NCBI GenBank assembly: GCA_963830815.1
Contig: CAWHNN010000017.1
Coordinates: 29,750 to 93,749, forward strand
DNA: 64,000 nt
DNA from: an uncultured Acidobacteriota bacterium
Lineage (GTDB): Bacteria; Acidobacteriota; Vicinamibacteria; Vicinamibacterales; 2-12-FULL-66-21
Direction: 5' to 3'
This document shows, one piece after another, positions 9,459 to 49,017 of the stretch (position 1 is the first letter of the stretch; the number at the start of each line of letters is the position of its first letter). The position numbers were made by a program, and so were the translations under genes. The notes under the pieces are model-generated. The model made no database searches. It was not told the DNA's origin and saw only the letters and a program-made list of their open reading frames with translations.

Positions 9459-11349
9459 TTACTCGCCCCGTCCTGCAATCCCTGCGGCCATCGGCTCGTG
9501 GTGCGGTTCGGCCACCGAGCGAATACCTTCCTGCTGGATGATGTCGTCGGTCACCGATCGCGCGTCGATCGGAAGGCCGCTGTAGTGCAGCACGCTGCGC
9601 ACCTTGGCGTGGTGATCGGCGGTGATATCGAGGCGCATCAGCGCCAGCATCTGCGCGTCGCGATTCTGCTCGACGATGTAGATGCGCTCGTAGCGATCGA
9701 GGAACGTCGTCAGCTCGTCCGTGAAGGGATAGGCACGGAGACGCAGGTAGGCGCTCTTGAGCCCGTATTCCTTCTCCAGCTGATCGCGGCTCTCTTCGAT
9801 CGCCCAATGGCTGGTGCCGAACCCGATGATACCGACGCTGGCGTCGGCAACGTCGTCGACAACCGGCTTCGGCACGTGGCGGCGCGCCGTCTCGAACTTT
9901 CGCGCCAGCCGCTCCATGTTGTGCACGTAGTCGTCTGGGCCGCTCGCTGTACTGGCCCTTCTCGTTGTGGCCGGAGCCGCGCGTGAAGTAGGCGGGCATC
10001 CCCTCTCCGGGAACGGATCGGTACGGGATGCCGTCGCCGTCGACGTCCTTGTAGCGTCCCCATTCGCCGATGCGCGCGAGCGTAGCGGCGTCGAGCCGCT
10101 TGCCGCGATCGAGCGGCTGATCGGGATAGGTGAACGGCTGCGACATCCAGTTGTTCATGCCGAGGTCGAGGTCGCTCATCACGAAGACCATGACCTGGAA
10201 ACGCTCCGCCAGATCGAACGCCTCCATCGCCATCGTGTAGCACTCTTCGACCGAGGCCGGGATCAGCATGATCTGCTTGGTGTCGCCGTGCGACAGCACT
10301 GCGGTCGAGAGCAGATCACCCTGCGCCGTGCGCGTCGGCAGCCCGGTGGACGGCCCCACGCGCTGGATGTCGAACACCACGCCGGGAACTTCTGCGTAAT
10401 ACGCGAGGCCGGCGAATTCGCCCATCAGCGAGATCCCGGGGCCTGACGTCGAGGTCATGGCCCGTGCCCCCGCCCAGCCGGCGCCCACCACCATCCCAAT
10501 CGACGCAATCTCGTCTTCCGCCTGGACGACGGCGTAGGTTGCCTTGCCCGTCTCGGGATCCTTGCGGTACTTCTTGAGATAGCCGATCAGCGTTTCCGGC
10601 AGCGAAGACGATGGCGTGATCGGGTACCACGCGACGACCGTGACGCCGGCAAACATGCAACCCAGCGCCGCGGCGGCGTTGCCCTCGACCAGAATCATCC
10701 CGGTCGTCTTGTCCATCGGCTCGACCCAGTACGGATCGACCTTGGGCAGGTGCTGCTCGGCGTAGGCGAAGCCGGCTTCGAGCGCAGCCATGTTCAACTC
10801 GATGGCCTTCTGCTTCTTCCCGAGCTGGCGCTTCAGCGCGTGCTCCATCTGCTTCAAATCGATGTTGAGCAGCTTCGAGAGGACCCCGTCGTAGATCATG
10901 TTCTTGACGAGGCGGCGCAGCTTGGCGTCCTTGCAGACCTCAGCCACGATCTTGTCGAAGGGCACCGGGTAGAAGATCAAGTCCTGCCGCAAGCCACTCA
11001 ACTTGAGTGGCTCGTCATAGAGCACCGCCGTGCCGGGCTCGAGGGACAGGACGTCCTCGCGCGCGGTCTCCGGGTTCATCGCGACGAGGAAATCGACTTC
11101 CTTTTTACGGGCGATATAACCGTGCTTGTTGGCGCGGATCGTGTACCAGGTGGGCAGTCCGGCGATATTCGACGGAAACATGTTCTTGCCCGACACTGGA
11201 ACGCCCATCTGGAAGAGCGAGCGCAGCAGGACAAGGTTGGCGGTCTGGCTGCCGGAGCCGTTGACCGTTGCCACCTGGATACTGAAATCGTTGACGCGGG
11301 TGGCGACGGACTGTGGAGCGGCAGGAACCGCGACATCACTCAAAGACAT
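9459..11349 (-). CDS. korA: 2-oxoglutarate/2-oxoacid:ferredoxin oxidoreductase, alpha subunit; one frame break near 9936
   Basis: N-terminal 470 aa in ORF 8401..11349 (GSGSQTANL, YPITPSS). The C-terminus is in ORF 9459..9926. The junction reads ..GQYSERP / DDYVHNMERLARKFE. Confidence 0.88.
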
Positions 11350-14379: not shown

Positions 14380-16289
<1,910 letters not shown>

Positions 16290-16292
<3 letters not shown>

Positions 16293-16375
16293 TGCTGAAG
16301 TCTGAATGCTGAGTGCTGAATGAAGCGTTCAGCATTCAGCATTCATTCAGCATTCAGCATTCGACATTCAGCATT
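16290..16375. repeat. heptamer hairpin element, TGCTGAA/TTCAGCA class
   Basis: TAA TGCTGAA G TCTGAA TGCTGAG TGCTGAA TGAAGCG | TTCAGCA TTCAGCA TTCA TTCAGCA TTCAGCA TTCGACA TTCAGCA TT ATG. It spans from the sdhA stop to the sdhB start. Confidence 0.9.
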
Positions 16376-17116
16376 ATGCGAATTCTTCTAAAGGTTTGGC
16401 GGCAGTCGGGTCCGAAGGCTCGCCAGGCGAGCTCGTCGACTACGTGGTCGAGAACGCCTCGCCGGACATGTCCTTCCTCGAGATGCTCGACGTCGTCAAT
16501 GAGGGACTGATTGTGCAGGGCAAGGATCCGATCGCGTTCGACTCGGACTGCCGCGAGGGTATCTGCGGGGCGTGCGGCTTTCTCATCAACGGCGTCCCGC
16601 ACGGACCGGATCCGGGCACGACGGTCTGCCAGCTGCACATGCGGCGCTTCAAGGACAACGATCGCATCGTCCTCGAGCCGTGGCGCGCCAAGGCGTTTCC
16701 GCTGATCAAGGACCTCGTCGTCGATCGCAGCGCCTTCGATCGGATCATCCAGGCGGGGCTATACGTCGATCAACGTCGGCGGCGCGCCCGATGGCAACGC
16801 CATCCTCATCCCCGGTCCGGTCGTCGAACAGGCGATGGATTCGGCAGCCTGCATCGGCTGCGGTGCGTGCGTCGCCGCCTGCAAGAATGCGTCAGCTGCC
16901 CTCTTCACGTCAGCGAAGGTCAGCCACCTCGCGCTCCTGCCACAGGGAAAGGTCGAGCGCGACGCGCGGGTCGTCGCCATGGTCGATCGCCACGATCAGG
17001 AAGGGTTTGGCAGCTGCTCGAATGAGGGCGAGTGCGAGGCGGTGTGCCCGAAGGAAATCTCGATCACCAACATTGCGCGGATGAACCGGGAATACCTGCG
17101 AGCTACGCTTCTGTAG
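16376..17116 (+). CDS. sdhB: succinate dehydrogenase iron-sulfur subunit; frame breaks near 16405 and 16770
   Basis: [23 protein letters not shown] and [13 protein letters not shown] cluster motifs. ATG 16376 ([10 protein letters not shown]). Confidence 0.88.
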
Positions 17117-17182
17117 TGCTGAATTTCGAGTGCTGAGTGCTGAATGAATTCGGCACAGTTCACTTCAGCACTCAGCATTCAC
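17117..17182. repeat. heptamer hairpin element, TGCTGAA/TTCAGCA class, between convergent sdhB and mdh
   Basis: TGCTGAGTGCTGAA (17131-17144) is perfectly complementary to TTCAGCACTCAGCA (17164-17177). Confidence 0.9.
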
Positions 17183-18120
17183 TCAGACTTTAATGACGTC
17201 CACGAGTTCCTTGACGGCGCCAGCGGACTTCTTCAGCGCCGCGTCTTCTTCCGGCGTCAGCGTGATCTGAATGATCTGCTCGACGCCGCGAGCGCCGAGC
17301 TTCACGGGCACGCCAACGAAAAGGTCCTGAAGGCCGTACTCACCCTGCAGGAACACCGAGCAGGGAACGATCTTCTTCTTGTCCTTGAGGATGATCTCCA
17401 CCATCTCCGCCGCCGCCGAGCCCGGCGCATACCAGGCGCTGGTGCCCACGAGCTTGGTGATCTCGGCGCCGCCGTCGGCGGTGCGCTTGCAGATCGCCTC
17501 GATGCGCTCCTTCGAGATGAGCTCGGTGATCGGGATACCGGCGACCGTCGAGTAGCGCGGCAGCGGCACCATCGTGTCGCCGTGCCCGCCAAGGACGAAG
17601 GCGTGAATGTTCTCGACCGAAACGTTCAACTCCATGGCGATGAACGTGCGCATGCGCGCCGAGTCGAGGACGCCGGCCATGCCGATGACGCGCTCGCGCG
17701 GGAACTTGCTCAGGCGGTAACGGCCTGCGCCATCGCGTCGAGGGGATTCGCGACCGGCACGATGATCGTGTTCGGTGAGTACTTGACGATCTGCTCGGTG
17801 ACCGCCTGCATGATCTTGTAGTTGGTATTGAGCAGATCGTCGCGGCTCATGCCCGGCTTGCGCGGCATACCCGACGTGATGACGACCACGTCAGAATTCG
17901 CCGACGCCGCCCACCCCTCGTCGTTGGCGCCGTAGCCGACGACACGCGAGTCGGATCCCTCGATGGGGCACGCCTCGAGCATGTCCAGGCCGACGCCGCC
18001 GGCCTTCTGATCGGCGACGTCGATGATGACGACGTCCGCCAGTTCCTTGTCCGCAATGGCCCGCGCGACCGTGGCGCCAACCGCGCCCGCTCCTCCCACT
18101 ACCGTAACTTTTCTATTCAT
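17183..18120 (-). CDS. mdh: malate dehydrogenase (LDH-like); one frame break near 17715
   Basis: [27 protein letters not shown] and GGHGDTMVP. The junction reads AMAQAV / [16 protein letters not shown]. Confidence 0.9.
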
Positions 18121-18145
18121 CGACTAACCTCGAGGGAACACCTAC

Positions 18146-18237
18146 AGTGCTGAATGCGAATGTTGATTGCTGAATGAATGCTGATGCATGCTGAACGATT
18201 CGAAATTCATTCAGCATTCAGCACTCAGCATTCGACA
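18146..18237. repeat. heptamer hairpin element, TGCTGAA/TTCAGCA class, between icd stop and mdh start
   Basis: GTGCTGAA TGCGAA TGTTGAT TGCTGAA TGAA TGCTGAT GCA TGCTGAA .. A TTCAGCA TTCAGCA CTCAGCA TTCGACA. Confidence 0.9.
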
Positions 18238-19571
18238 TTACATATTGGCGATCATCGCGTCTGCGAATTCAGATGTCTTGAGCTCCTTCGCGCCGGTCAT
18301 CAGACGCGCGAAGTCGTACGTCACCTGCTTGGCCGCGATGGCGCCGTCCATGCCCTTGACGAGAAGGTCCGCCGCCTCGGTCCAGCCCATGTGCCGGAAC
18401 ATCATCTCGCCGGAGAGGACGACCGATCCCGGGTTGACCTTGTCCTGGTTGGCGTACTTCGGCGCGGTGCCGTGCGTCGCTTCGAAGACGGCGTGCCCGG
18501 TGACGTAGTTGATGTTGCCGCCCGGCGCGATGCCGATGCCGCCGACCTGGGCCGCCAGCGCGTCCGACAGGTAGTCGCCATTGAGGTTCGGCGTCGCGAT
18601 GACGTCGAACTCGTCTGGCCGGGTCAGCACCTGCTGCAGCGTGATGTCGGCAATCGCGTCCTTGATCACGAGGCCGGCGCCGGGCTTCCCTGCCGGAATC
18701 TTGCACCACGGGCCGCCGTCGATCTCCTCGGCGCCGAAGAACGTCTTCGCGACCTCGTAGCCCCAGTCGCGGAAGGCGCCCTCGGTGAACTTCATGATGT
18801 TGCCCTTGTGCACGAGCGTCACGCTCTTGCGATTGCTGGCAATCGCGTAGCTGATGGCGCTGTGGATCAGGCGCTCGCTCCCGAGATAGCTGATCGGCTT
18901 GAGGCCGATGCCGACCTGGACGCCGACTTCGCGTGCCGGGGCGCCGATGCCCTGCAGCAGTCCCTGCCACTCCTGGCCGGCCTGCGCCGTGCCAAAGCGG
19001 ATCTTCTTGAACTCCTTCGGAAACTCGCGCGCGAAGAAGTCGAGCAGCTTCTGCGCTTCCGGCGTGCCGGCGGCGTATTCGATGCCGGCGTAGATGTCCT
19101 CGGTGTTCTCGCGGAAGATCACCATGTCGACCTTCTCGGGATGCTTCACCGGCGACGGAACGCCTTTGAACCAGCGCACCGGCCTGAGGCAGACGTAGAG
19201 ATCGAGCAACTGGCGCAGCGCGACGTTCAGCGAGCGGATACCGCCGCCCACCGGCGTCGTCAGCGGTCCCTTGATGCCGACCAGATAGTGACGAAACGCC
19301 TCGACGGTTTCGTCCGGCAGCCACGTCGTCGAACTGTCTTGAAGCTCTTTTCGCCGGCGTAGACTTCGAACCAGGCGATCTTCTTCTTCCCGCCGTACGC
19401 TTTCTGCACCGCGGCATCGAAGACGCGCACGGATGCGCGCCAAATATCTGGCCCGGTGCCATCGCCTTCGATGAACGGGATGATAGGATCGTCGGGAACG
19501 ATGAGACGGCCATCCTTCTTGGTGATGGCGGTCCCTGTGGCGGGCGGCTTCAACATCGAAAAATTTGGCAT
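18238..19571 (-). CDS. icd: NADP-dependent isocitrate dehydrogenase (homodimeric type); two close frame breaks near 19330
   Basis: Near-colinear with my memory of E. coli Icd: [59 protein letters not shown] and [10 protein letters not shown]. Confidence 0.92.
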
Positions 19572-21405: not shown

Positions 21406-21939
21406 CTACTGGCGCAGGGCGAGCCGGCGCACGGTGCCGGTCAGGAGATCGTTCAGCTCGACGGCGTCGGCCGAGACCGGACCGACGCGATATCTCGCCG
21501 CCAGCGACTCGCCTTCCTTCACAAGAAAAAGCTCACCGCTCAAGGCCGAGATGATCGCGGTGCGCGCAAGACCCTTGGCCGTTTCTTGTTCGGCGACACC
21601 AATGAGTTCGATGGCCGGCTCGAGCGGAGGCCCGAGCTCCGGCGCGGGCGCTTCATCCGGGGGTGGCGCTGCTTCCTTCCGTTCGGGGGTCGCGCGCGAG
21701 CTGAATGCGAATGGGTTGCGGAAGGGTTCGTGCGGAGTGGGCGCGCTCGCGAGACGATTCTTGAGCCGCATCGTCTGCGCCTGCACTTCTGCGGCAAGCG
21801 TGACCGTATCGTCCGGCTTCTCGCGCTCGGCAGGCGGAGCTGCCTCCGGGGCCTGGCGCATGAGGCCAGCTGCCGACGAGAGCCACGCCGCCAGCAACAA
21901 CGCGCCGCCGAGAATTCCTGCAGCCCGCTTGGCGCTCAT
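21406..21939 (-). CDS. hypothetical membrane-anchored/secreted protein with Pro-rich linker and small beta-rich C-terminal domain
   Basis: Intact 177-aa ORF. Hydrophobic N-terminus GILGGALLLAAWLSSAAG. The C-terminal IELIGVAE..AIIS..GELFLVKEGESL..YRV..V..DAVEL is reminiscent of PilP/GspC-type domains. Confidence 0.5.
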   Translation of the reverse strand: MSAKRAAGILGGALLLAAWLSSAAGLMRQAPEAAPPAEREKPDDTVTLAAEVQAQTMRLKNRLASAPTPHEPFRNPFAFSSRATPERKEAAPPPDEAPAPELGPPLEPAIELIGVAEQETAKGLARTAIISALSGELFLVKEGESLAARYRVGPVSADAVELNDLLTGTVRRLALRQ

Positions 21940-21956: not shown

Positions 21957-22049
21957 ATGCTGAATGCTGAATGCTCGAATGCTGAATGAGTTTATCGCTG
22001 CAGCTAATCCGGCATTCATTCAGCATTCACACTTCAGCATTCAGCATTG
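21957..22049. repeat. heptamer hairpin element, TGCTGAA/TTCAGCA class, in a divergent intergenic region
   Basis: TGCTGAA TGCTGAA TGCTCGAA TGCTGAA TGAG, a 23-nt centre, then A TTCA TTCAGCA TTCACAC TTCAGCA TTCAGCA. Confidence 0.9.
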
Positions 22050-22079
22050 CTGCGCCGTGCACTTGTGGTAAGATTTGCC

Positions 22080-22888
22080 GTGCCGCCTGTTTCATCCTCC
22101 GGGCCCACCTCCACTTCAAGCCTTCGCAGCACTATCGTCGTCATCCCGGCTCGCTACGACTCGTCGCGGCTTCCTGGTAAAGCATTGGCGGACATCGGCG
22201 GCGAGCCGATGATTCAGCACGTCTATCGCCGCGCCAGTCAGGCGCGCCACGTCGAACGCGCGTCATCGTCGCGACTGACGACACCCGCATCGTCGACGCC
22301 GTCCGCGCCTTCGGCGGCGACGTGCGCATGACGGCCGCGAGCCACCGCAGCGGCACGGATCGTCTCGCCGAAGTCGCCGCGACCATCGACTGCGAGATCG
22401 TCGTCAACGTGCAGGGGGATGAGCCGCTCATCGAGCCCGAGATGATCGACGAAGCCGTCGCGCCGTTTGCCGGCGAGCCTGGCCTGCGCATGAGCACGCT
22501 TCGGCGCCGCATCGAGGATCCCGCGGACTTCGCCAACCCGAACGTGACCAAGGTCGTCGTCGATCGCGAAGGTTACGCGCTCTACTTCTCGCGATCGCCG
22601 ATCCCCTATGCGCGCCAGGACAGCCTGGCCGCGCCGGCGTGGCGGCACGTCGGGCTCTACGTCTATCGGCGGGAGTGCCTGCTCGAGCTGTCGCGTCTCG
22701 CGCCGACCGAGCTCGAACAGTCCGAAGCGCTCGAGCAGCTGCGCGCGCTGGAGCACGGCATCCGCATCAAGGTCATCGAAACGAAATACGACTCGATCGG
22801 CGTCGATACGCCAGACGATCTCACTCGCGTCCGTAGCCGGCTGGAACAGCACGCGAGCGCGCTCGGGGTAGGGCCCCGAACGCATTGA
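22080..22888 (+). CDS. kdsB: 3-deoxy-manno-octulosonate cytidylyltransferase; one frame break near 22262; start uncertain
   Basis: [27 protein letters not shown] and YVYRRECL. In-frame GTG at 22080 (alternatives 22047 and 22065). Confidence 0.85.
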
Positions 22889-26983: not shown

Positions 26984-28204
26984 TGGACGGCTACGTCGTA
27001 CTCCTCAGCGGCCTCGTTGCGTTACTCGTCGGTCTGGCAATGGGCAAGGCGTGGGAGCGCTACAAGCTACGCGACGGCCAGTGGATCGACCGCCGGCGCG
27101 CGCGCGAGTCGCCGCACTACATGCTCGGCCTCAATTTCCTCGCCGCCAACCAGACCGATTCTGCCATCGACGAGCTGACACGGGCCGCGGCGGCAGCCGG
27201 CGATCCGCTCGAGATCCATCTGATCCTCGGCAACCTCTATCGCGAGAAGGGACAGGTCGGCCGCGCCATCCAGGAGCATCAGAAGCTGCTGCAGCGCCCG
27301 GACCTGCGCAAGCTGGAGCACGCCAACGTCCTGCTCTGCCTCGGCCTCGACTACAAGCAGCGGCGGGTTCGTCGATCGCGCGCTCGAGGCGTTCAGCGAA
27401 GTGCCTGCGCCTCGATCCTGACAATCAGTACGCGTTGTCGAACCTGGAGAAGCTGTACGAAGAGCAGCACCAGTGGTCGGAAGCCTACGCGACGCGGCAG
27501 AAGCTCGCGCGGCGCGACGCCGACACCACCCACGCGCGGCACCAGGAGATCCTGGCGTTCCTCGACAACGAGCTCGGGCTCGACGCGCTCAAACGCAGCG
27601 ATCACGCCGAGGCCGCGCGCCGCTTCGAAGCAGCCATCGAGCTCGACGAGCACATCGTTCCGGCCTACCTAAATCTCGGCGATGTACGCCTGCAGAAGGG
27701 CGACATCGCCGGCGCGATTGCCGCGTGGGAGCGGGTCATCGAGAAGTCTCCCGAGCGTGCCTACCTCGCATTCGACCGGCTGGAAACGGCGTATCCGCAG
27801 GGTAACGGCCGGGATCGCTTTCCGGCGCTCTGCCGTCAATTGATCGATTCCAATCCCCTGGACTGGCGCGCCCGGCTGGCGCTCGCCCGGCACTTGTCGG
27901 CGCACGGCTCACCCGAGGCAGCCTGGAGATGCTGTTCGAGGCCCTGGTCCACAACCCGCACGCGCTCGTCCTCCATCAGGCGATCTGGAGACGTTGTCGG
28001 TGCTGAACCTGCCGCCGGCGCTCGTACGGCCGCTACGTCGACCTGACGCGCGACGCCGTTTTCTACCTCGACCCGCACATCTGCATCCGCTGCCGCTATC
28101 GCAGCACCGAGCTCCTCTGGCAATGCCCGCAATGCCACGAGTGGAACACGTTCATCGAGGAACGGATCGCGCCGGCCAAAGAAACGCTGAAGTCTGACGT
28201 CTGA
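26983..28204 (+). CDS. lapB: lipopolysaccharide assembly protein B (TPR + C-terminal rubredoxin-like Zn site); about 4 frame breaks
   Basis: N-terminal helix VVLLSGLVALLVGLAMG, TPR repeats, and C-terminal CIRCRY..WQCPQCHEWNTF. The ATG overlaps the kdsC stop (TGATG). Confidence 0.8.
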
Positions 28205-28239
28205 GGTTGGCGGCTGGCGGCTGGCTGCTGGCTGTTCCA
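28205..28239. repeat. one-armed tandem heptamer array (GGCTGGC-like x5) after lapB
   Basis: GGTTGGC GGCTGGC GGCTGGC TGCTGGC TGTTCCA directly after the lapB stop. Confidence 0.75.
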
Positions 28240-32276: not shown

Positions 32277-32377
32277 GGTTCAGGGTTCAACGTTCAGTCG
32301 GTTAAGGGTTCACGTTTCACCGCAGTCCCGACTCGAACCTGGAACGACCGTGAACCCTGAACCCGAACGCTGAACTT
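32277..32377. repeat. heptamer hairpin element, GGTTCAG/CTGAACC class, between accC and thiE
   Basis: GGTTCAG GGTTCAA CGTTCAG .. GGGTTCAC .. GTGAACC CTGAACC CGAACGC TGAACTT. Confidence 0.85.
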
Positions 32378-43623: not shown

Positions 43624-44109
43624 ATGGGTTCGTTTGTCCCCACCGCCGGAACCATCACCCGGCAGTGGCACGTGATTGACGCCGACGGTCAGGTACTGGG
43701 CCGCGTGGCGACTGAAGCCGCCCGCCTGTTGCAGGGAAAGCACAAGCCGGTCTACACCCCGTATATCGATACCGGCGACCACGTTGTCGTGGTCAATGCC
43801 GCACGTGTCGTCATGACCGGGCGCAAGGAAGAACAGAAGCTTTACCGCTACCACTCGGGGTACGAAGGCGGCGTCCGCCAGGAGCGCGCGAAGGAAGTGC
43901 GCCAGAAGGACCCGCGCCGGTTGGTCGAGGAAGCCGTGCGCGGCATGCTTCCCAAGACCACGCTGGGCGAGGCCATGTGGCGCAAGCTGAAGGTCTATCC
44001 CGACGCGCAGCATCCGCACCAGGCGCAGGGGCCGAAACCGTTCGCCGTCTCGAGCGGCCCGGGCAAGAAGTCAGCCGACAAGAAGTCGAAAAAGCGAGAG
44101 GTCGCCTAA
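43624..44109 (+). CDS. rplM: 50S ribosomal protein L13 (with Lys-rich C-terminal extension)
   Basis: [21 protein letters not shown] and VVVNA. Intact. Confidence 0.95.
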
Positions 44110-44110
44110 C

Positions 44111-44506
44111 GTGGCAGCAGGGATTGAGTATTACGGCACGGGCCGCCGGAAGAAGTCGACCGCCCGAGTATTTCTTCGCCCCGGAACCGGGGGCATCGTC
44201 ATCAACCGCAAACCCATCGAGACGGCCTTCCCCACCGAGGCACTGCGCACGCAAATCAGGCAGCCGATGGCGGTGACGGAAACGACCGACAAGTTCGACG
44301 TGCTGGCGACCATCGCCGGCGGCGGCACGGCTGGACAGGCAGGAGCGCTGCGCCTCGGAATCGCGCGCGCCCTCGTCGAGTACAACGTCGAGCTGCGGCA
44401 GCGCCTCAAGAAGGCCGGGTTCCTGACGCGCGACGCGCGCATCAAGGAACGGAAGAAGTACGGACAGAAGGGCGCGCGTAAGCGCTTCCAGTTCAGCAAG
44501 AGATAG
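44111..44506 (+). CDS. rpsI: 30S ribosomal protein S9
   Basis: [30 protein letters not shown] and the C-terminal [18 protein letters not shown]. Confidence 0.95.
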
Positions 44507-44577
44507 TTCAGCTCTCAGCGAGCAGCACCGGCTTTCAGCAATCAAGCTGCAAGCTGAAGGCTGACGGCTGACAGCTC
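44507..44577. repeat. heptamer hairpin element, TTCAGCN/GCTGANN class, between rpsI and rpsB
   Basis: TTCAGCT CTCAGCG AGCAGCA .. TTCAGCA .. GCTGAAG GCTGACG GCTGACA GCT. Confidence 0.8.
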
Positions 44578-44590
44578 CAATGGAGGAAGC

Positions 44591-45397
44591 TTGAACGGCA
44601 TCGCGTTGAAGGATTTGCTCGAAGCAGGAGTCCATTTCGGTCACCAGACGAAGCGCTGGAACCCGAAGATGAAGTCGTACATCTTCGGCGAGCGGAACGG
44701 GATCTACATCATCGACCTGGCCAAGACAGCCAAGCTGTTCCGCGACGCGGAGCAGTTCACGATGAATCTCGCAGCCGAAGGACGCACGATCCTGTTTGTG
44801 GGCACCAAGCGGCAGGCGCAGGACGCGGTGGCGGAAGAAGCGCAGCGGTGCGGCATGTTCTTCGTGAACCAGCGCTGGCTCGGCGGGTTGCTGACGAACT
44901 TTACGACCATCCAGCGCAGTCTGTCGCGCCTCCGCGACCTCGAAGCGATGGAGACCGACGGCCGCTACGACACGCTGTCGAAGAAGGAGATCGCGCAGAT
45001 CGAGAAAGAAAAGCGCAAGCTCCAGAAGAACCTCGAAGGTATCCGCCACATGTCGCGGCTGCCCGATGCCCTCTTCGTCGTCGACACGCGCAAGGAAAAG
45101 ATCGCCGTCGACGAGGCGCGAAAGCTGAAGATTCCGGTCATCGGCGTCGTCGACACCAACTGCGATCCCGACGAAGTCGATTACGTCATCCCCGGCAACG
45201 ACGATGCGCTGCGCGCGATTCGCCTCTTCGCGGCGAAGATTGCCGACGCAGTGCTTGGCGGCCGTGGCATCCGTGAGTCGGCGCAGGCTGACGACGAGAC
45301 CGACGCCGACGAACGCGGCCGACGTGGCGCGGCGCGCCCCGGTACCACCGCTCGTCCGGCCCGGCCCGAACAGGCCACTTCGACGGCCACCGTCTAG
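44591..45397 (+). CDS. rpsB: 30S ribosomal protein S2
   Basis: [19 protein letters not shown] and [11 protein letters not shown] start with GGAGGA upstream. Confidence 0.93.
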
Positions 45398-45414
45398 ACG
45401 GAACGCCCTCTCGA

Positions 45415-45452
45415 TTCTCGCGCCGGCCCGGGCTTCTCCGCGCCGGCGTTCT
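45415..45452 (+). terminator. possible terminator after rpsB
   Basis: CGCCGGC (45421-45427) pairs with GCCGGCG (45442-45448), followed by TTCTT. Confidence 0.35.
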
Positions 45453-45460
45453 TATGTACT

Positions 45461-45580
45461 TCAGTCGTCAGTCATCAGTCCGTCGGCTCGGCAGTCCTCA
45501 GTCGGCAGCTCGACGATCGACTGAAATTCTGACGACTGAAGACAGACGACTGAAGACTGAGAAGACTGACGACTGACGAC
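45461..45580. repeat. heptamer hairpin element, TCAGTCN/GACTGAN class, between rpsB and tsf
   Basis: TCAGTCG TCAGTCA TCAGTCC .. CCTCAGT CGGCAGC TCGACGATCGA CTGAAAT .. GACTGAA GACAGAC GACTGAA GACTGAG .. GACTGAC GACTGAC. Confidence 0.85.
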
Positions 45581-45590
45581 GAGGCAACTA

Positions 45591-46196
45591 ATGGAAATCA
45601 CAGCAGCGATGGTGAAGAAGCTCCGCGACACGACGGGCGCGGGGATGATGGAGTGCAAGGCGGCGCTGACCGAGGCCAAGGGCGACATGGAGGAAGCGAC
45701 GACCATCCTCCGCAAGCGCGGTCTCGCGCAGGCGACCAAGAAGGCCGGCCGCTCCACCAACGAGGGGCTCATCGGCAACTACATCCACATGGGCGGCAAG
45801 ATCGGCGTCATGGTCGAGATCAACTGCGAGTCCGATTTCGTCGCGCGCACTGATGACTTCCAGGGCATGGCGCGCGAGATCGCGATGCACATCGCCGCCG
45901 CCAGCCCGCAGTATGTCCGGCGCGAGGAAGTCCCTGCCGAGGTTCTCGAGCGCGAGAAGGAAATCTTTCGCGCGCAGATGAAGGATCAGAACAAGCCGGC
46001 ACAGGTCATCGAGAAGATCGTCGACGGCAAGCTAAACAGCTTCTACGAGCAAGTGTGCCTGATGGATCAGCCGTCGGTCCGCGACCCCAAGGTGACGATC
46101 GGCCAGGTCGTGCAGGCCGCGATCGCCAAGCTCGGCGAGAACATCACCGTCCCGCGCTTCGTTCGCTACAAGCTTGGCGAAACGAGCGGGAACTGA
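45591..46196 (+). CDS. tsf: translation elongation factor Ts (short form)
   Basis: AAMVKKLRDTTGAGMMECKAAL and EINCESDFVAR. Intact. Confidence 0.93.
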   Translation: MEITAAMVKKLRDTTGAGMMECKAALTEAKGDMEEATTILRKRGLAQATKKAGRSTNEGLIGNYIHMGGKIGVMVEINCESDFVARTDDFQGMAREIAMHIAAASPQYVRREEVPAEVLEREKEIFRAQMKDQNKPAQVIEKIVDGKLNSFYEQVCLMDQPSVRDPKVTIGQVVQAAIAKLGENITVPRFVRYKLGETSGN

Positions 46197-46204
46197 ATAG
46201 AGAT

Positions 46205-46270
46205 CGTTCAAGGTTCAAGGTTCGAACGGGTTCATGAAGCCGCTGAACCTTGAACCCTGAACCTTGAACG
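46205..46270. repeat. heptamer hairpin element, GTTCAAG/CTTGAAC class, between tsf and pyrH
   Basis: GTTCAAG GTTCAAG GTTCGAA CGG GTTCATG AAGCCGC TGAACCT TGAACCC TGAACCT TGAACGA. Confidence 0.88.
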
Positions 46271-46292
46271 ATGCAGATATAATCGCCCTGCC

Positions 46293-47006
46293 ATGCCTCC
46301 CGTCTACAGCCGCGTACTCCTCAAGCTCTCTGGCGAAGCCCTCATGGGCGAACAGCAGTATGGAATCGATCCTGCTGTGGCGAGCCGCATCGCCGCCGAT
46401 ATCGGTGAAATTCAGCAGCTCGGCGTGCAGACAGCCGTGGTCATCGGCGGCGGCAACCTCTTTCGCGGCCTCGCGGCCAGCGCGAAGGGCATGGATCGCG
46501 CGACCGCTGACTACATGGGCATGCTGGCGACGGTCATCAATGGCCTCGCCCTGCAGGATGCGCTCGAGAAGCACAACGTCGTGACACGCGTCGCGACGGC
46601 TATCGAGATGCGCGCCGTCGCCGAGCCGTTCATCCGCCGCCGGGCCGTACGCCACCTCGAGAAGGGACGCGTTGTCGTTTTTGCCGCCGGCACGGGGAAT
46701 CCGTACTTCACGACCGACACCGCCGCGGCCCTCCGCGCGATGGAGATGAAGGCGGACGTCATCCTCAAGGGCACCAAAGTCGACGGCATCTACACCGCCG
46801 ACCCGATGATCGACAAGACGGCGACGAAGTACCAGGAAATCTCGTACCTCAAGGTCCTCGAGCAGGGCCTCAAGGTCATGGACGCCACCGCAATCTCGCT
46901 CTGCATGGACAACCGCCTCCCTATCGTCGTCTTCAACCTTCGGACGGCTGGAAACCTGAAGCGGGTCATCATGGGCGAGCCGATTGGAACGACCGTCAAG
47001 GTCTGA
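46293..47006 (+). CDS. pyrH: UMP kinase
   Basis: [19 protein letters not shown] and [17 protein letters not shown]. Intact. Confidence 0.93.
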
Positions 47007-47028: not shown

Positions 47029-47598
47029 ATGGACGCGACAGACATAAAGGGGCTCTTCGCTGAACTGAAGAAGCGGATGGATGGGCAGCTCGATCACGTG
47101 CGGCGAGAGTTCGGCGGCGTTCGTACAGGACGCGCGTCGGTGACCATCCTCGACGCCGTTCACGTCGAAGCCTACGGCTCGCAGGTGCCCCTGAATCAGG
47201 TCGCCTCGCTGTCGATCCCCGAGCCCACACTCATCGTCGCGACACCGTTCGATCCGTCGTTGACGGCAACCATCGAGAAGGCCATCCGCAGCGCCAACCT
47301 CGGGCTCAACCCGGCGACCGACGGCAAGGCCATCCGCATCCCCCTTCCCGCCTTGACTGAAGAACGGCGCAAGGAGATGTCGAAGCTCGTGCACAAGTAC
47401 GCCGAAGAAGGTCGCAACGGCGTGCGTCAGGCGCGGCGCGACGCCAACGATCGGCTGAAGAAGCTCCTCAAGGATTCCAAGATCTCCGAAGACGACGAGC
47501 GGCGCGGCCTCGAGGACGTGCAGAAAGCCACCGACCAGCACATCGCCCAGATCGACGAGCTCCAGAAGAAGAAGGACACGGAGCTGCTCGGGAAGTAG
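47029..47598 (+). CDS. frr: ribosome recycling factor
   Basis: VRTGRASVTILD, PLPALTEERRKE and RRDAND. ATG 47029 inside ORF 46984..47598. Confidence 0.92.
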   Translation: MDATDIKGLFAELKKRMDGQLDHVRREFGGVRTGRASVTILDAVHVEAYGSQVPLNQVASLSIPEPTLIVATPFDPSLTATIEKAIRSANLGLNPATDGKAIRIPLPALTEERRKEMSKLVHKYAEEGRNGVRQARRDANDRLKKLLKDSKISEDDERRGLEDVQKATDQHIAQIDELQKKKDTELLGK

Positions 47599-47669
47599 GA
47601 ATCTGAATGCTGAATGCTGAATGAATTCAGAACTCATTCAGCATTCAACATTCAACATTCAGCATTGCC
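47599..47669. repeat. heptamer hairpin element, TGCTGAA/TTCAGCA class, between frr and thrC
   Basis: TCTGAA TGCTGAA TGCTGAA TGAATTCAGAACTCA TTCAGCA TTCAACA TTCAACA TTCAGCA TTGCC ATG. This gives a stem of about 20 bp with one mismatch. Confidence 0.9.
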
Positions 47670-48833
47670 ATGATCCACCTAGAGTGCTCGGCGCCGTGCG
47701 GCGCCGGGCCATACGATCCGAAAGCAGTCGAACACCACCTCTGTTCCTGCGGCGCGCCACTCCTCGCCCGCTACGATCTCGACGCCGCTCGCTCCTGGCG
47801 ACGTGAATCCCTCGCATCGCGCGAACCGACGATGTGGCGGTACCGCGAGCTGATGCCGCTGTTCGAAGGCGAGTCGCCGATAACGCTCGGCGAGGGCTGG
47901 ACGCCGCTCGTCCACGCCCGGCGCCTGGGCGCAACGCTCGGCATGTCGCGGCTCTACGTCAAAGACGAATCGCTGAACCCGACCAATTCGTTCAAGGCGC
48001 GCGGGCTGTCCGCGGCCGTGACGCGGGCGTTCTATCTCGGCGCGAAGACGCTCTCGGTGCCCTCGGCCGGCAATGCTGCGAACGCTGTCGCGGCCTACGC
48101 CGCCGCGGCCGGCCTCGAGGCGAAGGTCTTCATGCCCAAAGACGTCAAGGTCCCCTTCATCCGCGAATGCGAGCTCTACGGTGCGGAAGTCACGCTCGTC
48201 GACGGACTGATCACCGATGCCGGCCGCATCGCCGCGGAAAGGGGGAAGCCGCTCGGCTGGTACGACATGTCGACGCTGAAGGAGCCGTACCGCATCGAAG
48301 GCAAGAAGACGATGGCCTACGAGATCGCCGAACAGCTCGGGTGGTCACTCCCCGACTGGATCATCTATCCAACCGGCGGCGGCACCGGCATGGTCGGCAT
48401 GTGGAAGGCCTTCGACGAGATGGAGCGCATCGGCTGGCTCGAGCGCGGCAGGCGGCCAAAGATGGTTTCGGTGCAGGCGGAACACTGCGCGCCGATCGTC
48501 AAGGCGTTCGAGCAGGGCGCGGAGCGATCCGAGATGTGGCAGGGTGCGCGTACGGTGGCTGATGGCCTGCGTGTTCCCAAGGCCGTCGGCGATTTCCTCG
48601 TCCTCCGCGCGGTGCGCGAGAGCGGCGGCACCGCTGTCGCGGTAAGCGACGAGGACATGGTTGCCGGAATGCTGGAGCTCGGGAAACGCGAAGGCATCAG
48701 CGCAGCGCCCGAAGGCGGGGCGGCCCTGCAGGCACTCAAGCACCTGCTTGAAACGGGACTTGCGAACTCCCGAGTCCGTCGTCCTCTTCAATACTGGCGG
48801 TGCGCTGAAGTATCTCGAGCCCTCGTACACTGA
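47670..48833 (+). CDS. thrC: threonine synthase-like PLP enzyme with N-terminal Cys-rich segment; frame break near 48765; 3' end uncertain (48833 or up to 48942)
   Basis: NPTNSFKARG (PLP lysine), SAGNAANAVAAYAA and YPTGGGTGMVG. The tail NTGGALKYLE is in another frame. Confidence 0.72.
   Translation: MIHLECSAPCGAGPYDPKAVEHHLCSCGAPLLARYDLDAARSWRRESLASREPTMWRYRELMPLFEGESPITLGEGWTPLVHARRLGATLGMSRLYVKDESLNPTNSFKARGLSAAVTRAFYLGAKTLSVPSAGNAANAVAAYAAAAGLEAKVFMPKDVKVPFIRECELYGAEVTLVDGLITDAGRIAAERGKPLGWYDMSTLKEPYRIEGKKTMAYEIAEQLGWSLPDWIIYPTGGGTGMVGMWKAFDEMERIGWLERGRRPKMVSVQAEHCAPIVKAFEQGAERSEMWQGARTVADGLRVPKAVGDFLVLRAVRESGGTAVAVSDEDMVAGMLELGKREGISAAPEGGAALQALKHLLETGLANSRVRRPLQYWRCAEVSRALVH

Positions 48834-48943: not shown

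Positions 48944-49017
<74 letters not shown>

Follow-up and report, generated by a model that had tools for sequence, protein, structure and literature searches.

Inverted heptanucleotide repeat arrays in the intercistronic spacers of an uncultured Acidobacteriota bacterium

Introduction

Cyanobacteria have been known to carry heptamer repeats since 1990, and an excess of such repeats in many bacteria was demonstrated in 2007; to our knowledge, neither their function nor the cause of their 7-nucleotide (nt) period has been established. In this work we describe repeats of this kind in a 64,000-nt stretch of DNA from an uncultured Acidobacteriota bacterium (GenBank assembly GCA_963830815.1, contig CAWHNN010000017.1, positions 29,750 to 93,749; hereafter the window, numbered from its first letter), in which nine spacers, among them those following rpsI, rpsB, tsf and frr in the rplM-rpsI-rpsB-tsf-pyrH-frr operon, hold tandem 7-nt units arranged as two inverted arms. 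We read these elements as self-complementary heptanucleotide microsatellites, i.e., tandem 7-nt units facing their reverse complement on the other arm. Taken whole, with a REP-like effect on the transcript included, this statement falls just on the probable side; its part on microsatellite dynamics is highly probable, and a selected role at the RNA level is on the doubtful side.

The closest described systems are other heptamers. Heptameric simple repeats are over-represented in many bacteria, for which polymerase slippage has been proposed, and examples come from Calothrix and Nostoc (STRR; GGGGAYT) as well as Xanthomonas (GGGAATC), some of them as inverted pairs and with strong variation between close species (PMC4692102). 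A regulatory role of the Nostoc heptamers was suggested and not resolved (bioRxiv 10.1101/2022.06.06.494920). The STRR of Calothrix, Anabaena and Nostoc and the Xanthomonas heptamers are like the arrays of the window in being tandem, 7 nt long, intergenic, present at many loci and split into several unit families per genome; their length and sequence vary between close relatives, and some form inverted stem-loop pairs (PMC4692102). The STRR differ in host and unit, being cyanobacterial with CCCCAGT, TTGGTCA and CAACAGT, whereas here the host belongs to the Acidobacteriota and the units are TCAGCx, TCAGTCx, GTTCAAG and TGCTGAA. They differ in build too, given that the acidobacterial arrays are inverted as a rule, have arms that co-vary, contain no G-quadruplex formers and sit in the spacers of a conserved ribosomal-protein operon. 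The acidobacterial arrays resemble STRR in kind, but not in family.

A second comparison is with the TAACTGA direct repeats, abundant in Beggiatoaceae, some cyanobacteria and Bacteroidetes (PMC4679880). These too are intergenic heptamers at coding-sequence boundaries with CTGA in the unit, and one of the acidobacterial loci studied below (L065) uses TAACTGA/TAACTGC. They are direct repeats, with one inverted case in 170 sets, and lie mostly upstream of start codons in one orientation (PMC4679880), whereas the acidobacterial arrays are paired, palindromic and mostly start at stop codons.

Under the general definition the arrays of the window are heptanucleotide simple repeats, and they fall outside what defines REP (repetitive extragenic palindromic) sequences, miniature inverted-repeat transposable elements (MITEs), intrinsic terminators and Rfam families. 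What is new is that they are nearly always palindromic, have coupled arms, occupy a universal operon and occur in this phylum; a full-text literature search of incomplete coverage found no paper joining Acidobacteria with heptanucleotide repeats, which is no proof of novelty. In a major soil phylum that has been little studied, the arrays offer a clean natural system, with a universally conserved operon, strain variation and fixed flanks, in which the rate and step size of unit change, the coupling of the arms and the effect of stem length on neighbour expression can be measured. They are also likely trouble spots for the assembly and annotation of Acidobacteriota metagenomes, and could serve as strain-typing markers of the variable number of tandem repeats (VNTR) type.

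Period, palindromy and position of the arrays

An array was scored where frames of 14 bases had at least 12 self-matches at lag 7, with dinucleotide shuffles as control. By this measure the window holds 15 lag-7 arrays against 0.77 expected (maximum 3 in the shuffles), 14 of them non-coding, and lags 5, 8, 10 and 13 yield only 0-1 arrays each. Every inverted repeat of the window that is at least 85% complementary is a heptamer array, and nine heptamer hairpin elements (E1-E9) lie in the 64 kb. Five carry TGCTGAA units (at 16291, 17128, 18150, 21957 and 47599), two GGTTCAR units (at 32277 and in the tsf-pyrH spacer), one TCAGCx units and one TCAGTCx units:

E6, 44507..44576, plus strand: rpsI-rpsB element, ten heptamers in one register, hairpin weak.
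E7, 45460..45580, plus strand: rpsB-tsf element, RNA z = -3.9, 43 pairs.
E8, 46203..46272, plus strand: tsf-pyrH element, RNA z = -8.1, 30 pairs.
E9, 47599..47666, plus strand: frr-PALP element of the TGCTGAA class, taking up the whole spacer, from the stop codon of frr until 3 nt short of the ATG that follows.
E1, 16291..16375, no strand assigned: TGCTGAA class, sdhA-sdhB spacer, z = -10.0; the sdhA stop codon overlaps the first unit.
E2, 17128..17180, no strand assigned: TGCTGAA/GAGTGCT class, between the convergent sdhB and mdh, z = -5.9.
E3, 18150..18233, no strand assigned: TGCTGAA class, icd-mdh spacer with both genes on the minus strand, z = -5.3.
E4, 21957..22048, no strand assigned: TGCTGAA class, divergent spacer upstream of a minus-strand open reading frame (ORF; 21406-21939) and kdsB, z = -6.8.
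E5, 32277..32375, no strand assigned: GGTTCAG/CTGAACC class, between two minus-strand genes, z = -2.4; its unit is one mismatch from that of E8.

E6 follows directly on the stop codon of rpsI and leaves 5 nt to the GGAGG of rpsB. Its left arm (44507-44541) consists of five heptamers of the type xxCAGCx (TTCAGCT, CTCAGCG, AGCAGCA, CCGGCTT, TCAGCAA) and its right arm (44542-44576) of five of the type xxxxGCT (TCAAGCT, GCAAGCT, GAAGGCT, GACGGCT, GACAGCT). E7 is made up of a left arm of (N)TCAGTC (45460-45508), a centre without repeats (45509-45528) and a right arm of GACTGA(N) (45529-45580) that ends just 5′ of the GAGG and ATG of tsf. In E8, the left arm (46206-46226: GTTCAAG, GTTCAAG, GTTCGAA) and the right arm (46244-46271: GCTGAAC, CTTGAAC, CCTGAAC, CTTGAAC) enclose an inner stem and loop (46227-46243).

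An earlier reading of the letters of this DNA (the original prediction) had described the spacers after rpsI, rpsB and tsf as hairpins of two inverted arrays in strict 7-nt steps. The two arrays are borne out in all three spacers, with both arms where they had been read, and the output of TRF has period-7 rows at all three elements. The period itself is supported by the excess at lag 7; it is not strict at rpsB-tsf, to which TRF assigns 8-9% indels. The hairpin build stands for rpsB-tsf (RNA z = -3.9, DNA z = -3.9 against shuffles) and tsf-pyrH (RNA z = -8.1, DNA z = -8.7), both of which fold strongly, and is weak for rpsI-rpsB (RNA z = -1.9, DNA z = -1.2), where GCUG/CAGC blocks pair and mismatched positions lie between them.

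The arrays sit mostly between housekeeping genes of the same direction: seven of the nine elements lie between co-directional genes (sdhA|sdhB, icd|mdh, rpsI|rpsB, rpsB|tsf, tsf|pyrH, frr|PALP and one minus-strand pair); the other two lie between the convergent sdhB and mdh and in a divergent spacer. Most begin at the upstream stop codon or no more than a few bases from it. Such a position just 3′ of stop codons is where ordinary intrinsic terminators, repetitive by chance, would lie, and this explanation could also draw on the plain hairpins that some relatives have at tsf-pyrH (L008, L009, L087) and on the conserved TATAAT before pyrH, which follows closely on the tsf-pyrH element. We find it scarcely credible, as the stems are far longer than those of terminators and variable in length, one element occupies a divergent promoter spacer, there is no T-run 3′ of the elements (the sequences 3′ of the stems are GCTCCAATGG, GAGGCAACTA and GATGCAGATA), and a terminator scan gave no terminator at the element sites. 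E7, moreover, is adjoined by a separate, canonical GC-rich hairpin with a T-tract:

45419..45459, plus strand: terminator/attenuator hairpin (CGCGCCGGCC...GCGCCGGCG) followed by TTCTTATGTAC, immediately 5′ of E7 and separate from the heptamers.

This GC-rich hairpin (GCGCCGGC...GCCGGCG), with its T-rich tail running to TGTAC, is also found in L001, L002, L007-L011, L032, L081-L085 and L090, and its sequence and position are conserved whether or not a relative has a heptamer element; where present in rpsB-tsf, such an element begins right past TGTAC. Among strains of the window's species it has one polymorphic site in 62 nt. Judged by its sequence, it is probably the attenuator or terminator of rpsB-tsf.

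In an Rfam search of the window the sole match was a tRNA at 48944 and no element reached a gathering score; at E-values up to 1 there were only miRNA-precursor look-alikes, far below threshold, on the frr hairpin.

Unrelated units in the same spacers of relatives

Relatives were sampled round tsf, with 80 loci from genomes and 80 from metagenomes centred on that gene (1.57 Mb, about 20 kb per relative; loci are numbered with an L). They contain 141 lag-7 arrays, compared to 8-17 for lags 5, 8, 11 and 13, and the inverted pairs of the 80 genome loci and the window amount to 43 arm pairs in 36 distinct hairpin regions. The arrays are as a rule frequent in Pyrinomonadaceae/Blastocatellia and in the clade to which the window belongs; Bryobacterales and Terriglobia seldom have them, and in Chloracidobacterium and Nitrospirota-type loci they are sporadic. 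In the close clade they occupy 5 of 14 rpsB-tsf spacers, 6 of 13 tsf-pyrH spacers and 5 of 10 spacers downstream of frr, and their presence changes among relatives with 75-90% Tsf identity.

The units change even more freely. After frr, the window has ATGCTGA, L082 TTGCTGA, L032 AGTCTGA and L001 CAACGCC/TTGGGAG, and there is none in L002 and L090; in rpsB-tsf, TCAGTCN of the window is matched by TCAGCTN in L032 and L083, by AGCTGCC in L081, and by nothing in L001, L002 and L084. The tsf-pyrH spacer has GTTCAAG in the window, GGTTCAA in L032, GGTTTTT in L082, GAGCACT in L083 and L084, GTGGTYC in L001 and GTTCCGG in L011, the plain hairpins already mentioned in L008, L009 and L087, and no element in L002, L005 and L010. 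Because the same spacers carry unrelated units, conservation extends to the period, the palindromy and the type of location, but not to the sequence.

This bears directly on the idea that all units contain CTGAA on one arm and TTCAG on the other, possibly as a shared protein or RNase recognition core. The first half of it was overstated: the tsf-pyrH element contains CTGAA twice and TTCAG not at all, the rpsI-rpsB element CTGAA once and TTCAG twice, most relatives' elements are without the core, and what most units of the window have in common is the 4-mer CTGA/TCAG only, one or the other of which is found in every window element. CTGAA as a universal core was rejected, with no TTCAG in tsf-pyrH and units free of CTGA in relatives. 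A shared recognition core is not supported either, given that CAACGCC/TTGGGAG, GGTTTTT and GAGCACT stand in the same spacers of relatives without CTGA, and that E6, E7 and E8 have dominant units which differ from one another and from TGCTGAA by 2-4 mismatches, i.e., within the range of chance. Across all loci, CTGA or TCAG is present in 21 of 121 distinct units compared to 8.1 expected (z = 4.6), and GAAA, AACT and AATC are as enriched. Of the over-representation whose lack would have refuted the original prediction, that of the 7-nt period is confirmed, as it beats the shuffles. CTGAA/TTCAG is concentrated in the elements, at 50 per kb, and not enriched outside them: the remaining non-coding DNA has 31 copies where 25 are expected, and coding DNA 62 where 54 are expected. 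That each locus uses its own heptamer holds in part, the unit of tsf-pyrH being one base from that of 32277-32375. Stop codons in all frames were also considered as the cause of units bearing TGA, and rejected, many of the relatives' units having no stop triplet by inspection.

Some relatives deserve separate mention. The G-rich units GGGATCT (L004, 14234-14447), GGGATCG (L018, 9539-9570) and GGGATTA (L061, 8725-8792) resemble the heptamers of Xanthomonas and Nostoc, and the TAACTGA/TAACTGC units of L065 (9612-9680) the TAACTGA of Beggiatoaceae and cyanobacteria. One locus of the Bryobacterales (L028) has inverted arrays with a 10-nt period (9891-9919, 14492-14519, 18064-18142 and 18350-18428; CACAGATGGA... 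facing ...TATCTGTGTT). These decamers are a separate case, in which the architecture of a tandem-repeat hairpin exists with another unit length in another lineage.

Variation among strains

Same-species strains were found by exact-protein look-ups with RpsI and PyrH, which gave 19 loci from about 12 assemblies, all of one operon; a look-up with Tsf gave no strain match. The strains diverge by 0.2-6% over rpsB, tsf, pyrH and frr, and several of their assemblies are long-read, with indel errors.

Between essentially identical flanks, the rpsB-tsf spacer measures 193-349 nt among these strains (spread up to 156 nt), with 4-14 CAGTC motifs in the left arm and 5-18 GACTG motifs in the right. The unit counts of the two arms correlate (r = 0.79, p = 0.0014 for 13 alleles, which are phylogenetically non-independent), and the predicted paired bases of the alleles climb from 126 to 222. 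The tsf-pyrH spacer measures 66-206 nt (spread up to 140 nt), with 11 + 11 units in L178. The alleles of E9 stay at 71-73 nt, with point changes in its carriers, and 16 strain loci have the same 84-nt rpsI-rpsB spacer, from which L178 (the most divergent) departs by one substitution and L174 by a deletion. The original prediction had seen in these spacers locally amplified or homogenised structures rather than a single mobile sequence. The first part of this is well supported, by length changes of up to 156 and 140 nt within a species between identical flanks and by unit variants that are lineage-specific on both arms (ATGCTGA/TTGCTGA/AGTCTGA after frr, TCAGTC/TCAGCT in rpsB-tsf).

Whole elements are lost as well. 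E9 is missing in L163 and L176, where TAG-AGA-ATG is left and the first GAATG of the element is kept, fused to ATG, and E6 is missing in L174, where GCTGAAGGCT is left. Because these strains are nested among carriers, both losses are secondary deletions across the base of the hairpin.

Two further observations concern the surroundings of rpsI. In L161-L179, third-position polymorphism is 6-10% in rpsI and the first 150 nt of rpsB and 24-36% in tsf, pyrH and frr, which points to stronger codon constraint or to a recent local sweep or recombination round rpsI. In one further contig, L167 (ERZ23878265 NODE_34794, coverage 2.7x), identity to the window is 98-100% over rpsI, the rpsI-rpsB element and the initial 270 nt of rpsB, compared to 95% over rplM and 86-88% over the remaining rpsB and tsf. 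This would be either a recombination tract round the rpsI-rpsB element or an assembly chimera, and L167 was set aside as a candidate strain with a different rpsB-tsf unit, being a mosaic or chimeric low-coverage contig.

Evolution of the arrays

A preference for period 7, a placement that is non-coding and for the most part intercistronic, fast change of unit number, coupled arms, unit turnover on both arms and loss by deletion are thus all observed. Read as self-complementary microsatellites, the arrays would gain and lose units by slipped-strand mispairing in 7-nt steps, and point variants would spread by the duplication of units. Hairpin-templated strand switching (i.e., quasi-palindrome correction) could keep the arms matched, as could selection for a closed stem; interrupted or heterogeneous arrays, such as that of rpsI-rpsB, would be stabilised and less prone to slippage. 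Quasi-palindrome template switching and slipped-strand mispairing are both known from E. coli, and together they fit the gain and loss of units, the balanced arms and the deletion across the base of the hairpin. As processes they do not define a family of elements, and their action here is inferred.

The differences between units are informative in this respect. They cluster on single unit positions, a signal that disappears when edge units are dropped, and positions with at least three bases are not in excess (28 compared to 34 expected). Clustered differences without an excess of multi-allelic positions suggest one point mutation followed by duplication of the unit. A binding-site model with a fixed core of 4-5 nt and free N positions was rejected, there being no multi-allelic excess and the signal being lost without edge units. 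The 71% pairing at variable positions was dropped as evidence of copying, as it reflects majority bases shared by the arms.

Several results weigh against this microsatellite explanation, or against parts of it. The mirror order of variant units between arms was not detected (0.811 complementary compared to 0.811 shuffled in 20 arm pairs), so that any arm-to-arm copying is inferred by an indirect route. Strain alleles differ by gaps that do not fall cleanly on multiples of 7, with repeat alignments that are ambiguous and several assemblies that are long-read; of the proposed comparison of orthologous spacers for gain or loss of whole units, the large length changes are thus confirmed, whereas clean 7-nt steps are not resolved in the alignments. 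The rpsI-rpsB spacer is polymorphic at 1 of 84 sites compared to about 8% of third codon positions in the 150 nt that flank it to either side (P ~0.008), the overall value for third positions among strains being 26%; the near-invariance of this element may reflect constraint, a local sweep or both. Local slippage alone leaves unexplained the five TGCTGAA copies with a non-periodic block and the excess of CTGA units in the genome, and the reason for the 7-nt period is left unexplained too. Finally, at the RNA level, stem transitions in the operon hairpins are 49 of the G:U type compared to 69 of the A:C type (2 compared to 11 in E6-E9 alone), and antisense folds are equal or better for E7-E9, i.e., for three of the four operon elements.

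Dispersal of the TGCTGAA class

The five TGCTGAA-class copies of the window have in common an invariant TGCTGAATGA...TTCAGCA block and a phase break beside loops that are unrelated. The TGCTGAA double unit is absent from 1.5 Mb of other-species loci and present only in strains of the window's species. The class is a species-specific dispersed family, and because it is species-specific yet dispersed, either a route of spreading or genome-wide homogenisation is needed. A genome-specific family of near-identical copies at many extragenic sites, such as REP sequences form, is seen in the TGCTGAA class and not in the elements of rpsI-rpsB, rpsB-tsf and tsf-pyrH, whose units differ.

One such route would be mobility, if the elements were a non-autonomous REP/REPIN- or MITE-like family, with copies inserted in trans by a transposase, arrays expanding locally and the different heptamers being subfamilies that diverged from a single founder. 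This fits the TGCTGAA class best, with five copies in 64 kb sharing a block and limited to one species, and it would account for the way in which elements fill very short spacers, being either cleanly present or cleanly absent (L163 has just 3 nt between frr and PALP, and in L002 the two genes touch or overlap). The presence of CTGA or TCAG in every window element, the common unit family of E5 and E8 and the recurrence of the E6 unit in other spacers of relatives could be added to this. For the elements as a whole we consider mobility unlikely. Both cases of presence and absence within the species go back to secondary deletion in nested strains rather than to insertion, and the 2-4 mismatches separating the dominant units of E6-E8 from TGCTGAA are in the range of chance. 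Conserved termini, a conserved loop or a GTAG/CGTC head were not seen. There is no target-site duplication when TAG-GAAT...TTGCC-ATG of the window is compared with TAG-AGA-ATG of L163, and none in the rpsI-rpsB alleles. No transposase candidate turned up in a window that was screened only in part, with few ORFs compared to Pfam.

The comparison with known mobile families goes the same way. REP, BIME and REPIN sequences are likewise extragenic palindromes in operon spacers and at 3′ ends, with species-specific families and partly conserved occupancy of spacers. They have a GTAG/CGTC head and a fixed consensus of 20-40 nt, neither of which is seen in the nine elements, whereas here the periodicity is 7 nt and the length variable; no RAYT gene turned up among the few window ORFs scanned against Pfam. 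MITEs are similarly small, non-coding, dispersed, structured and intergenic, and differ in having terminal inverted repeats distinct from the body, a target-site duplication, conserved internal sequence and a parent insertion sequence (IS), none of which is seen for the window elements; no IS relative is seen in the window and the loops of the five TGCTGAA copies are unrelated. In this respect, the view that these are not a classical MITE holds, as no target-site duplication, conserved termini or conserved loop is seen.

A palindrome of another kind is present in the rpsB-tsf spacers of two relatives (L007, ~9915-9970; L011, ~9880-9935), with GTAG in the sequence (GGTCCGGC...GCCGGACACTAC...GTAGTGTCCGC...GCGGAC). 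In L007 it follows the conserved terminator, whereas in L011 it precedes it. REP-like in look, it is possibly mobile.

Possible effects on expression

REPs of E. coli can affect mRNA stability or translation near stop codons, which serves here as an analogy only. Elements inside operons would be transcribed and fold into stems of 23-43 pairs (over 100 in some strains), bringing the upstream stop and the downstream start close together, which would make the insertion tolerable. The likeliest effect would be REP-like, i.e., a barrier to 3′ exonucleases, a processing site (e.g., a target of RNase III) or a partial decoupling of cistrons, with no sequence-specific signal. From position alone such an effect on the transcript is plausible; with no G:U excess on the sense strand, the wobble test does not support a function at the RNA level.

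A more specific function would follow if the elements were selected RNA or DNA sites, read in 7-nt steps by a factor (an OB-fold, cold-shock or S1 domain per heptamer, or an RNase with CTGA(A) specificity), with the number of copies tuning the expression of the flanking housekeeping genes. CspB of B. subtilis can bind heptamer direct repeats with one protein per heptamer (reviewed in PMC4679880). The arms remain balanced as arrays lengthen, the positions are beside stop codons in highly expressed operons, and the rpsI-rpsB element is nearly invariant, at its mismatched positions too, all of which speaks for such a factor, as do the enrichment of CTGA/TCAG in 21 of 121 units (8.1 expected) and its presence in most window units. 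In the strain alleles of E9, about 9 cells are of the G:U type compared to 3 of the A:C type, with one compensatory change. Against these stand the absence of an overall G:U bias on the sense strand, of a conserved core (unrelated units in the same spacers of relatives, other tetramers equally enriched) and of a multi-allelic excess at N positions beside a fixed core, as well as a copy number that varies several-fold among strains and the loss of elements in some of them. A factor of this sort is, in our view, distinctly unlikely.

Bolder still is the idea of an undescribed class of the Acidobacteriota (Vicinamibacteria-like lineages and Blastocatellia/Pyrinomonadaceae), in which a dedicated mechanism would build both arms actively and in symmetry, in 7-nt steps, and the arrays would spread as families specific to a genome, yielding length-tunable intercistronic stem-loops that set how strongly the genes of core operons are expressed relative to one another (rpsI/rpsB/tsf/pyrH/frr and sdh/mdh/icd); we think this very unlikely.

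The operon and its surroundings

The gene order rplM-rpsI-rpsB-tsf-pyrH-frr is retained across Acidobacteriota. The window has a G+C content of about 65%, and its Tsf is nearest to those of uncultured Acidobacteriota metagenome-assembled genomes (81-90% identity), with 66-74% for matches labelled Vicinamibacterales. The genes of the operon and some of its surroundings are as follows, gene calls outside the rplM-frr operon being crude:

rplM, 43624-44109, plus strand: operon gene.
rpsI, 44111-44506, plus strand: operon gene.
rpsB, 44591-45397, plus strand: operon gene.
tsf, 45591-46196, plus strand: operon gene.
pyrH, 46293-47006, plus strand: operon gene.
frr, 47029-47598, plus strand: operon gene.
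PALP-domain gene, 47670-48833, plus strand: 3′ of frr.
sdhA 14380-16292, sdhB 16396-17116, mdh 17183-18120, icd 18238-19513 and kdsB 22047-22888: each split over two reading frames.

Because several ORFs are split by frameshifts, the window is likely a long-read assembly with indel errors, and the split sdhA, sdhB, mdh, icd and kdsB are probably such errors and not pseudogenes. The key element sequences are also present in independent contigs of the Illumina type.

Just past the stop codon of a Cys-rich ORF lies a direct heptamer array (28202-28237) of about five GCTGGCG/GCTGGCT units, without an inverted partner and without a stable fold (z = -0.02).

Downstream of E8, a TATAAT at 46278-46283 lies 7-10 nt upstream of the pyrH start, without a Shine-Dalgarno sequence between the two. 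No -35 box stands at standard spacing from it, and the TTGAAC units upstream were rejected as a source of one, their spacings of 8, 15 and 22 nt not fitting. The same TATAAT is found in L001, L002, L005, L008-L011, L032, L082-L087, L090 and all strain loci, which suggests, from the sequence, that pyrH has a promoter of its own and an mRNA with little or no leader.

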